NCBI RefSeq assembly: GCF_002682985.1
Contig: NZ_MKGN01000012.1
Location: 1 to 14,706, forward strand
Direction of reading: 5' to 3'
From: Candidatus Tremblayella phenacoccinincola
GTDB taxonomy: Bacteria > Pseudomonadota > Gammaproteobacteria > Burkholderiales > Burkholderiaceae
DNA: 14,706 nt
Shown here: in pieces, positions 4,980-7,817 of the stretch
Position numbering within the stretch: position 1 is the first letter of the stretch
How the letters are laid out: every line of letters starts with the position of its first letter
Translations under genes and position numbers: made by a program
Notes under the pieces: model-generated
What the model was told of the DNA's origin: nothing
Database searches by the model: none
What the model saw: the letters and a program-made list of their open reading frames with translations, nothing else

Positions 4980-5951
4980 TTAAGTCCTTAGCTTTAGGAT
5001 TCTTAAGAACAATGTGTAGTTTAAAGGTGGGGGTGAAAGAAGCTTTAGTCTTGAACCTAATGTTGGGTGTTTAATCGAAAGAACAGTGGAATGTAGCATT
5101 AGTCTGGAACCTGAGAAAGGCTGACTACCATACCGAATATCTCCAAGAACTGGAAACCCCAAATGACTACAGTGTATTCTAAGCTGATGTGTACGTCCTG
5201 TTTCCAGCTTTACGATAAGTAAAAGGAATCTTCTCCATACTTTCAGACATTGAGCTATTGAACACGCTGGAAACCCTGCACGATGAACTAATACTTTCTT
5301 GGTATACGTGTCTAGCTCTTTTGTTAAGGGTGCTCTAATAGTTTGTATCTGTGTCCAGTATACAGACCAATCTCCTGCAACACTAGTATAATATTTCTTG
5401 AACACCTGCCTATATACGAACTGCTTTTGTATATTAAGTAATGCAGGCTTATCTTTTGCTAAAACCACTGTACCTGACGTACGTTGGTCTATTCTATGGA
5501 CTAGCTTTATGGAGTTGTTGTTATTGAGCTTCTGTATCGAATCTATTAAGCTAACGACTGTGCATTCTTTGCCTTTATGCACTGGCATATTGTTATCTTT
5601 ATCAACAGCTATTATGGACTCGTCCTCATATAATATATATAGTTGGTACGTATCGCTTGTTAAGGTATTATTCAGGCTTAAGTTAGGATGTTGAACATAT
5701 ATACAATCTCCAGCTTTGATACGATGTCCTACGTTAGGTTTGTTGTTGTTAATACCTACTCTGCTTGAACTCAGGACCTTATGTGACCAGCTTCTAGCAA
5801 CTCTGACGCCTAGAACAGAAGTTAGAAAGCTTTCTATTCTTTGGTCTTTCTGGTCTTCCTTAACTAAAAGAAGCAATGGGTTGTGGTTCATTATTGGGTC
5901 TATGTCGTATGGTTGGGGAATCCTCTTTGAGTGCTTTGGGTTGTGTTGCAT
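4980..5951 (-). CDS. rluC: RluA-family 23S rRNA pseudouridine synthase, RluC-like
   Basis: N-terminal S4-like region (DQRIESFL...RIKAGD), then ILYEDESIIAVDK, catalytic LVHRIDQRTSG, VAGDW, TGRTHQLRIH and GDIRYG. Collinear with E. coli RluC. The ORF track extends to 6059, but that extension lies inside tRNA-Ser. The start is therefore the ATG at 5951, or at 5891 (MNHNPLL), which fits the E. coli length better. Confidence 0.8.
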   Translation of the reverse strand: MQHNPKHSKRIPQPYDIDPIMNHNPLLLLVKEDQKDQRIESFLTSVLGVRVARSWSHKVLSSSRVGINNNKPNVGHRIKAGDCIYVQHPNLSLNNTLTSDTYQLYILYEDESIIAVDKDNNMPVHKGKECTVVSLIDSIQKLNNNNSIKLVHRIDQRTSGTVVLAKDKPALLNIQKQFVYRQVFKKYYTSVAGDWSVYWTQIQTIRAPLTKELDTYTKKVLVHRAGFPACSIAQCLKVWRRFLLLIVKLETGRTHQLRIHCSHLGFPVLGDIRYGSQPFSGSRLMLHSTVLSIKHPTLGSRLKLLSPPPLNYTLFLRILKLRT

Positions 5952-5977
5952 ATATACATAGAGACTGCTTTGCCATC

Positions 5978-6060
5978 CGATGAGAGAGGGATTCGAACCC
6001 TCGATGCTTTCACATATACGTCTTCCAAACATACGTCTTAAACCTCTCGACCATCTCATC
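5978..6060 (-). tRNA. tRNA-Ser, anticodon GGA, type II
   Basis: The reverse complement folds as follows. Acceptor GATGAGA/TCTCATC, 3-bp D stem GTC/GAC, anticodon stem TATGT/ACGTA with loop TTGGAAG. 13-nt variable arm, T arm GAGGG-TTCGAAT-CCCTC, discriminator G. Collinear with E. coli tRNA-Ser(GGA). No encoded CCA. Confidence 0.85.
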
Positions 6061-6080
6061 TTCTATAGCAACCAATGTTC

Positions 6081-7817
6081 CTAAAATATATCTAATATAC
6101 TAGCTAGGCTTCTTATTATATTATTATGGGTTCTTATATATAGACATATATTACTTGCTGCTTTTATGTTAACGTTTGGTATGCTAGCTAAAGAAGTAAT
6201 ATCAGCTAATAAAAGGCTATTCAAGGTTTTATAGGATGAAGCTATAGATAAAGCTGTTAGCCTGCCTATCTTTAAGATACCAAGAGAATATATAAACCGA
6301 GATAAAGGGATCCTTTTTGAGTTACTAATACGTAATACTAGCTTATGTGATAGGTTTAACCCAATAGAGGCTGCTTTCATAAAGTCCTTTGCTTTTAGAT
6401 AATATAACCCATAGCTATTTAAAACTAACCCATAATCAACCAGCTTACTAATTATGACATCACCTAACCCAAGTATATTCATTGCATATTTTGAAACAAA
6501 GTGCTTTAGTGATGCTTTTAGTTGGCTAGGACAAGATAAACCAGAAGTACAATACAAATATACCTTATCTTTAGTTAAAGCCTTAGTTAATAAGGAAAAG
6601 CAAGAAGGACAATATAAAGGAAAGACAACCTGTTTAGTATTAGCTGTTCGGTATTTAGGAATACATCTAACAACTTGAGGTATAATGTCTCCAGAACGAC
6701 GGACTATAACTGTATCATTAGCCATGATGTCTAACCGTCTAATGAAGCTAATATTATGTAAGCTAGCGGCTCTAATAGTAACACCAGATACTGAAACAGG
6801 ATTAAAGCTAGCTATCGGAGTTAATATGCCAGTCCTACCAACCCTAAACACAATCTTATTCAGCTTAGTCATCTTCTCTTCAGAAGAGAACCTATAAACT
6901 ATAGACCATTTAGGAGTCTTAGTAGAAACCCCAAGCTTCTTCTGATGTTCTATAGAGTCTAGTTTAACAGCTATACCATCAATAGAAAAGCCTAACATAA
7001 ACCTTATTCTTTTTATCTCATCATAAAACCTAAATACTTCTTTAATGTCTACACATGTTCGTCTATGCTCACATACTGGAACACCCCAACTGATTATCTT
7101 ATTTAAGTTAGCTATATGGCTAATAGATAAAGGACTTGTTCCTGGTAATATAGAATGCCCTTCATAGCAATAAAAAGATAAAGACCGTTTAGATGTGATA
7201 GTTGGATCTAGCTGACGTATAGAACCAGAAGCTGCATTACGTGGAGTAGAATAGTAGTTGCTTTTATAGTTAGAGAATCTAGTTAATATGTTAGGACCAT
7301 AATTAGACATAACTAGAACCCCACGTAACTCTAATATATGTGGTAAAGAACCATCATTTAATAGCTTATTAGGAATAGCCTCTATTACAAGAACATTAGA
7401 AGTAACATCTTCACCATATATGCCATCACCACGTGTTAAGCCTCTAACTAAGCAACCATCTTTATATAATAAACTAACAGCTAACCCATCAAGTTTGATC
7501 TCACAACAATATACAACATCAGCCTCAGGTTTATCTTTAAGTCTATTTCGGATACGTTTATCAAATAAAAGCATATCTTCTTTATTATATGTGGTTCTTA
7601 ATGAAAGCATAGGTAATATATGTTTCTTCTTTTTAAATAGCCCACTTCTAGAACAAATACAAAGACCTGGGTAACATCTTTCAAGATAGGCTAACTCATC
7701 TCTAGCACAGTCATACGCATTATCTGATACTTCTGGGGTTCTTTTTATATAATAAAGGAAATCCCAGTAGAGCAGCTGTTCATATAGTCTTCGAATCTGT
7801 CTTTTCAGTAAATACAT
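6081..7817 (-). CDS. ligA: NAD-dependent DNA ligase, lacking the C-terminal BRCT domain
   Basis: 578 aa. Domain Ia ([15 protein letters not shown]), adenylation motif [49 protein letters not shown]. Cys4 zinc finger (CPSC...CTSGLSC) and an HhH region. Collinear with E. coli LigA, but it stops where the E. coli protein (671 aa) continues into BRCT. Confidence 0.9.

Follow-up and report, generated by a model that had tools for sequence, protein, structure and literature searches.

A compositional step beside a tRNA-Ser gene as a probable seam between beta- and gamma-derived DNA in 'Candidatus Tremblaya phenacola'

Gene content and identity of the window

The window analyzed here is a stretch of 14,706 nucleotides (nt) from contig NZ_MKGN01000012.1 (assembly GCF_002682985.1, Candidatus Tremblayella phenacoccinincola, positions 1 to 14,706), and the subject is an abrupt step in its guanine-plus-cytosine (G+C) content and codon usage next to a gene for a serine transfer RNA, tRNA-Ser(GGA), which lies between an rluC-like gene and ligA (Table 1). 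The left block contains thrB, trpE, trpG, a relic of an aconitase gene (acn), rpmF, and the rluC-like gene. The right block contains ligA, grpE, a yebC pseudogene, argF, cysK, rpsT, and ileS.

TrpE, LigA, and RluC have 100% identical entries in 'Candidatus Tremblaya phenacola' (PHN16271.1 / WP_099336850.1 for TrpE). In the published gene list of strain PPER, the locus tags are 00111 for thrB, 00112 for trpE, 00113 for trpG, 00114 for acnA, 00115 for rpmF, 00118 for ligA, 00120 for argF, 00121 for cysK, 00122 for rpsT, and 00123 for ileS (PMC11014885 supplement). The gene order of the window is the order of TPPER_00111 to TPPER_00123, including the absence of yebC, and the window is almost certainly DNA of strain PPER from Phenacoccus peruvianus.

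Table 1. Features of the window in order of position. GC3, G+C fraction at third codon positions; beta, betaproteobacterial; gamma, gammaproteobacterial; PSOL, a second T. phenacola strain.
Feature	Positions	Strand	GC3	Assignment	Evidence
thrB, alternative APH/kinase-fold homoserine kinase	491..1510	-	0.38	beta-derived	NCBIfam NF003558 / TIGR00938 thrB_alt
trpE, anthranilate synthase component I	1688..3160	+	0.32	beta-derived	
trpG, stand-alone amidotransferase overlapping trpE	3157..3747	+	0.34	compositionally left	NCBIfam trpG_papA
acn relic (aconitase), 335 amino acids	3736..4743	-	0.33	compositionally left	AcnA models 72 bits against a cut-off of 905
rpmF (ribosomal protein L32)	4834..4977	-	0.41	beta-derived	tblastn with PSOL RpmF, 75% identity
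RluA-family pseudouridine synthase (rluC-like)	4980..5951	-	0.35	last gene of the high-G+C block	TIGR00005 187 bits
Spacer, 26 nt	5952..5977	.		most likely beta/gamma seam	flanked by left-type rluC and gamma-type tRNA
tRNA-Ser(GGA), 83 nt, CCA not encoded	5978..6060	-			ARAGORN; Rfam tRNA 51.3 bits
Spacer, 20 nt, tRNA 5' end to ligA stop	6061..6080	.			compositional change point at its edge
ligA, NAD-dependent DNA ligase without BRCT domain	6081..7817	-	0.23	gamma-derived	NF005932 536 bits
grpE	7780..8349	-	0.19	gamma-derived	NF010748 221 bits; tblastn Yersinia 61%, Proteus 57%, E. coli 52%
yebC pseudogene (TACO1 family)	8398..8957	-			fragments 8398-8484, 8523-8624, and 8853-8957 align to PSOL YebC
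argF/argI-type ornithine carbamoyltransferase	9004..10023	+	0.185	gamma-derived	NF009213 378 bits; E. coli, Klebsiella 51-52%
cysK	10020..10985	-	0.20	gamma-derived	TIGR01139 379 bits; Salmonella, Serratia, E. coli 54-55%
rpsT (ribosomal protein S20)	10998..11255	-	0.24	gamma-derived	tblastn with PSOL RpsT, 79% identity
ileS	11377..14235	+	0.23	gamma-derived	TIGR00392 751 bits

A single step in base composition and codon usage

The G+C content of the window fell from 38.2% (positions 1 to 6060) to 31.8% (6061 to 14706). For 60-nt lines, the mean was 38.1% (standard deviation 5.1, n = 100) in the left block and 31.8% (standard deviation 5.5, n = 143) in the right block. The step amounted to approximately 6.4 points overall, and the 500 nt flanking it on each side had G+C contents of 39.8% and 30.6%. 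A maximum-likelihood search for a single change point placed it at position 6081 (the leftmost base of the ligA stop codon as read on the plus strand), with a log-likelihood ratio, 31.8, that was reached in none of 1,000 shuffles of 300-bp blocks (mean 4.9, maximum 17.2). Binary segmentation found no second significant G+C change point in the window. An earlier interpretation made from the letters of the DNA (the sequence-only reading) had described a drop from 45% to 27% at this place. Its ten 60-nt G+C counts were exact to within rounding on recount, and the step is real; however, its size was overstated, since the sampled left lines ran above the average of their block.

Third codon positions carried nearly the whole step. 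GC3 was 0.32 to 0.41 in the left genes and 0.185 to 0.24 in the right genes, with no overlap of the two ranges (Mann-Whitney p = 0.002), and the G+C fraction at four-fold sites was approximately 0.24 on the left and 0.12 on the right. Synonymous codon usage differed strongly between the blocks (summed chi-square 209, 41 degrees of freedom, p = 2e-24), so that GC3 and codon usage, named in the sequence-only reading as a check on its proposal, are both discontinuous at the junction. The codon pairs that differed were AAC/AAT, CTG/TTA, TAC/TAT, TTC/TTT, and ACG/ACT. The first two of these pairs had been pointed out before as part of the shift, but two other parts of that description fared less well: the choice between GAG and GAA was alike in both blocks (p = 0.55), and the enrichment of ATA was weak (p = 0.1).

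Affinities of the genes on the two sides

In the published assignments for PPER, thrB, trpE, trpG, acnA, and rpmF are of beta origin, and ligA, argF, cysK, rpsT, and ileS are of gamma origin (PMC11014885). For several of the proteins we used tblastn against PLSDB; whole chromosomes of Burkholderia, Ralstonia, Neisseria, Proteus, and E. coli are present in it under a wrong label, which makes it suitable for distinguishing beta from gamma affinity. The best matches of ThrB were Burkholderia, Caballeronia, and Ralstonia at 31 to 35% identity, with no Enterobacterales among the 14 matches listed or in the organism summary. After T. phenacola itself, nearly all of the organisms named among the next 118 matches of TrpE were Burkholderiales (35 to 43% identity over most of the protein), and the NCBIfam model trpE_most scored above trpE_proteo. 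Together with the thrB_alt model, these matches agree with the kinase-fold thrB and the Pseudomonas/betaproteobacterial-type trpE recognized in the sequence-only reading. The ribosomal gene rpmF is published as beta in both strains (PMC11014885 supplement).

The trpG gene of the window is unfused, whereas trpG of enterics is fused to trpD. The adjacency of rluC and rpmF is generally conserved across Proteobacteria, and in the window rluC adjoins the beta-assigned rpmF. RluC matched Ralstonia (146 bits) above Proteus (123 bits) and E. coli (115 bits) in tblastn, and the gene groups with the left genes by codon usage and GC3. A homology search with RluC gave identities of 27 to 34% across the matches listed, which included Lachnospiraceae, Buchnera, and a Casimicrobiaceae metagenome-assembled genome and carried no taxonomic signal. 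The origin of rluC leans toward beta.

On the right side, GrpE, ArgF, CysK, and IleS all matched Enterobacterales best, in keeping with the enteric-like character previously claimed for the proteins of this block. IleS showed 44% identity with Proteus and E. coli (879 to 890 bits), above Acinetobacter (39.5%), and the best NCBIfam model for the ornithine carbamoyltransferase was the enteric type. The best matches of LigA outside Tremblaya were Ca. Mikella endobia (44%), Moranella endobia (42%), and Hoaglandella endobia (42%), followed by Enterobacterales. Mikella, Moranella, and Hoaglandella are Sodalis-allied and, in other mealybugs, reside within Tremblaya princeps. The GC3 of genes of the free-standing symbiont Mikella (0.16 to 0.25) also matched that of the gamma block (0.16 to 0.24).

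Conservation of the junction in strain PSOL

The genome of strain PSOL has been reported to be chimeric and syntenic with that of PPER (PMC11014885, Bai et al. 2024). In its contig1 (87,910 bp), an independent assembly, the order rluC / tRNA-Ser(GGA) / ligA / grpE / yebC / argF / cysK / rpsT / ileS was the same as in the window. The PSOL proteins were 79 to 82% identical to those of the window, and the DNA was approximately 84% identical on both sides of the junction. PSOL has its own G+C change point at 14545-14548, at the stop-codon end of ligA, with 37.6% and 29.6% G+C on the two sides and a log-likelihood ratio of 66.9. Comparison of synteny with a related genome, which had been suggested along with the original proposal, thus reproduced both the junction and the step. 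A search of the Logan assemblies found no further independent contigs that span the seam.

At four-fold sites, PPER and PSOL differed by 0.197 in the left block (n = 513) and by 0.205 in the right block (n = 522). In both blocks, synonymous divergence (dS) was 0.21 to 0.41, and the ratio of nonsynonymous to synonymous divergence (dN/dS) was 0.24 to 0.54. Because divergence is equal on both sides, the two blocks already shared one genome at the split of the strains, and the seam predates that split. Synonymous sites are far from saturated; therefore, an inherited difference in composition can persist.

Origin of the two blocks

Gil et al. in 2018 (ISME J 12:124) reportedly described the PPER genome as chimeric, the product of a fusion of co-resident symbionts. 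We consider, at a probability of about 90%, that the step in the window is a seam between beta-derived DNA (approximately 491 to 5951) and gamma-derived DNA (approximately 5978 to 14235) in this chimeric genome. The sequence-only reading had offered a junction of two evolutionary histories, including a fusion of co-resident symbiont genomes, as one explanation; the affinity of the genes does switch at the step, and this matches the published explanation (PMC11014885). Composition alone, read from the raw sequence, had thus located the seam to approximately 100 nt and given the correct cause.

The fusion explanation and a distinct signature of the gamma genes in GC content and codon usage were published previously, and the seam as such is known. 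The details added here are the change point at 6081, a probable border at 5952-5977, a tRNA-Ser that leans toward gamma type and probably belongs to the gamma block, and a seam common to two strains whose two sides have diverged equally (in dS) since the strains split.

The history behind such a seam would begin with a Sodalis-allied gamma symbiont joining the bacteriome of the Burkholderiales-related Tremblaya in an ancestor of these Phenacoccus hosts. Recombination, perhaps via enzymes of the gamma partner, would then have made one genome of the two, with redundant genes lost and blocks shuffled afterwards. Each block would have kept the composition and codon preferences of its former genome under incomplete amelioration, the compositional signal persisting because there has been too little time for a shared mutational regime to erase it. 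The fusion event, its mechanism, and the incomplete amelioration come from the literature or are what we infer, and are not observed in the window.

The explanation that competes best is stepwise horizontal transfer, in which a co-resident gamma symbiont donated pieces of DNA and the seam is the edge of one inserted segment. The two explanations differ in tempo and not in the nature of the seam, and the window alone cannot separate a whole-genome fusion from extensive stepwise transfer. The window has a single seam, its right block is rearranged relative to the enteric order (ligA-grpE-(yebC)-argF-cysK-rpsT-ileS), and gamma-type trp genes of T. phenacola were earlier described as putative horizontal gene transfer (PMC4144094), all of which would suit piecemeal acquisition. 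However, the right block consists of at least 8.2 kb of housekeeping genes without mobile-element genes. Moreover, by the published counts, 45 to 46% of the chimeric genome is gamma-derived, including much of the informational machinery and with little redundancy, which the authors of those counts read as fusion. This share favours fusion, and stepwise transfer appears quite unlikely.

The sequence-only reading had also allowed for an assembly chimera, in which contigs of Tremblaya and of a gamma co-symbiont would have been misjoined at the tRNA gene. Conserved tRNA genes can cause misjoins, and the PPER genome was never closed, with several genome organisations reported (PMC6463088). Nevertheless, the same junction and G+C step lie inside the independently assembled 87.9-kb PSOL contig, with alignable DNA through both sides and equal synonymous divergence, and neither fluorescence in situ hybridization nor PCR detected a separate gammaproteobacterium in P. 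peruvianus (PMC4144094), so that a misjoin has a negligible chance of being the cause. A regional bias of mutation or selection in a genome of single ancestry (related, for instance, to expression level, to distance from the origin, or to replication strand), the other alternative raised there, is hardly credible: G+C does vary within the left block, where the 5' third of trpE, earlier put at 25 to 33%, dips only mildly (34.6% against 37.7% in the rest of trpE), but both blocks use both strands, as had been claimed and as the list of open reading frames (ORFs) shows, the abrupt step is the sole significant change point and coincides with a switch from Burkholderiales to Enterobacterales proteins that such bias does not explain, and equal four-fold-site divergence argues against different mutation rates.

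Several points weigh against the seam between beta-derived and gamma-derived DNA or against the details given for it. The assignment of the window to PPER is one that we infer from the order of the locus tags and from the window not being PSOL. TrpG was ambiguous between beta and gamma in tblastn against PLSDB. In a neighbor-joining tree of RluC (200 bootstraps), in which the Neisseria sequence included is probably RluD, T. phenacola formed a long branch outside both RluC clades. The exact border rests on composition and on a tRNA of mixed character states. The published labels are also in conflict, since supplement file 5 of PMC11014885 gives trpE and acnA as 'gamma' in PSOL and as 'beta' in PPER, although the orthologues are syntenic and 82% identical for trpE and 67 to 71% for acnA. 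Because the nearest relatives of TrpE are Burkholderiales, the 'gamma' labels of the two genes in PSOL look wrong.

Position of the seam and origin of tRNA-Ser(GGA)

The switch had originally been placed in the gap of approximately 20 nt between the tRNA gene and ligA. The compositional change point does fall at the edge of this gap, but the seam itself probably lies on the rluC side of the tRNA. The tRNA gene has a G+C content of 45.8%, which pulls the change point to 6081. This content is high for structural reasons; therefore, composition cannot assign the tRNA to either block. Near the junction, alignment between the strains fails only in the spacer between rluC and the tRNA (26 nt in the window and 131 nt in PSOL), with the DNA alignments ending at 5915 and restarting at 5974.

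We aligned tRNA-Ser(GGA) with sequences from gamma (Mikella, Proteus, E. coli, and Acinetobacter) and beta bacteria (Neisseria, Ralstonia, and Burkholderia) and from one alphaproteobacterium. The acceptor pair 3:70 (T-A) was of gamma type in both strains, as was the whole D-stem in PSOL. Positions 19 and 21 of the D-loop and position 41 were of beta type. The PSOL tRNA is 3 steps from the gamma ancestor, two of them toward A/T, and 7 steps from the beta ancestor, several of them toward G/C. BLAST of the tRNA alone gave 74 to 80% identity to alpha, beta, and gamma sequences alike. The gamma-like and beta-like positions are interleaved, and no crossover pattern was found inside the tRNA. On balance, the character states lean toward a gamma-derived tRNA-Ser(GGA) that came with the gamma block, and the spacer at 5952-5977 is somewhat favoured over that at 6061-6080 as the place of the seam.

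The repeat search revealed no convincing repeats or inverted repeats of the kind expected of a recombination scar at the seam. A repeat of the 3' end of the tRNA (5978-6000) was absent from the 20 listed of at least 60 direct-repeat families and the 25 listed of at least 104 inverted pairs; a far border could be situated outside the contig. The window matched no integrase or transposase family; its ten largest ORFs were housekeeping genes or relics, and the yebC relic, rpmF, and rpsT made up the three small genes.

In PSOL, the spacer between tRNA-Ser and ligA (contig1 14515-14547) is 33 nt long with 58% G+C and contains a poly-C tract, CCCCTCCCCCCCCC, which is absent from the window. In Mikella (LN999831.1, 1602-11797), argF, asd, tRNA-Ser(GGA), rpmF, fabD-fabG-acpP, and ligA are found together in a stretch of 10 kb. 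The proximity of argF, tRNA-Ser(GGA), and ligA there as well may reflect a shared ancestry of the arrangement or a coincidence in tiny genomes. The seam as favoured here abuts the 3' end of the tRNA. A bolder idea, that beta/gamma seams are systematically anchored at tRNA genes throughout the PPER and PSOL genomes as the recombination substrates most alike between the symbionts, seems to us unlikely; if it were true, the descriptive 'collage' would become a mechanism open to testing.

Comparison with known systems

The published chimeras PPER (Gil et al. 2018) and PSOL (Bai et al. 2024, PMC11014885) are the same object as that described here, since proteins, gene order, and beta/gamma calls match. 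The consortia of Tremblaya princeps with Moranella, Mikella, or Hoaglandella in Pseudococcinae involve the same kinds of partners, and LigA of the window is closest to these symbionts, and shares their BRCT loss; the GC3 of the gamma genes is similar as well. In those consortia, however, two genomes reside in separate nested cells, whereas the genes of T. phenacola are on one DNA molecule. The junction also resembles a tRNA-associated genomic island, integrated by an integrase and subject to amelioration sensu Lawrence and Ochman, in that the step lies beside a tRNA gene and donor composition is retained in the foreign DNA. It is unlike such an island in lacking an integrase and, among the repeats listed, any copy of the tRNA 3' end, and in having a cargo of housekeeping genes; furthermore, approximately half of the genome is 'foreign', and the tRNA seems to be part of the incoming block.

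A genome merged from symbionts of two classes is among the most extreme known outcomes of endosymbiosis. Such a chimera is relevant to two questions: how symbioses that are nested or co-resident resolve, and in what way organelle-like genomes turn into mosaics.

Other features of the window

LigA ends at its C terminus in the same alignment column as the LigAs of Mikella and of a symbiont designated P0125, and those of a second symbiont, P0128, and of Hoaglandella are a few residues longer. The 3' end of ligA had been called truncated. It is indeed shortened, but the loss of the BRCT domain is shared with relatives and is not tied to the junction. The idea that the truncation is a scar of the junction was rejected because clean BRCT loss is common to the LigAs of several Sodalis-allied symbionts. 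We also rejected P0125 and P0128 as further chimeras, since they are ordinary gamma symbionts with enteric gene order. Near the N terminus of LigA, approximately nine residues around the conserved motif DSPxQRVG are missing in both T. phenacola strains.

At the left end (1-447), the window has tRNA-Leu(GAG) at 137-222 and tRNA-Met(CAT) at 250-325, where PSOL has hom-thrC upstream of thrB. Synteny with PSOL is lost there except for 55 nt (394-447) that match the stretch following thrC in PSOL (contig1 8458-8707). The acn relic is open in both strains; it combines the lowest amino acid identity of the set (71%) with the highest dN/dS (0.54) and may be a decaying gene.

In the right block, grpE and ligA overlap by 38 nt in the ORF calls (7780-7817) through a 14-residue C-terminal extension of GrpE, and the two genes are 56 nt apart in PSOL (16279-16334). 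The yebC gene is intact in PSOL (contig1 16910-17632), and its pseudogene in the window holds a tandem array at 8744-8863 with 5.1 copies of the 24-nt unit CTATTGGACAACAGTATTAGCATC. The order rpsT/ileS/lspA had been described for this block, but no lspA follows ileS: tblastn with E. coli LspA gave no match in 14236-14706, and all six frames of this 471-nt end are rich in stops. Between rpsT and ileS, ribF is missing.

A perfect 18-nt inverted repeat, (GCATGT)3 / (ACATGC)3, has one arm in the acn relic (4134-4151) and the other in ileS (12977-12994). Each arm encodes a His-Met repeat, and the repeat was not found in the PSOL sequence examined. The arms belong to the beta and the gamma block, respectively, and the alternative genome arrangements reported for PPER (PMC6463088) could have used this repeat as a substrate.

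The non-coding G+C of the gamma block was 31 to 37% (6061-6080, 8350-9003, 11259-11376, and 14236-14706, together with PSOL spacers) against a GC3 of 16 to 24%. In the beta block, non-coding G+C was 36 to 38%, and in Mikella it was 19%, equal to its GC3. In the simplest reading, the gamma-block spacers are young relics of coding DNA, with upward amelioration as the alternative. With spacers at 31 to 37% G+C and third positions at approximately 20%, a further, unlikely reading is that the two codon dialects might be actively maintained and not merely fading.

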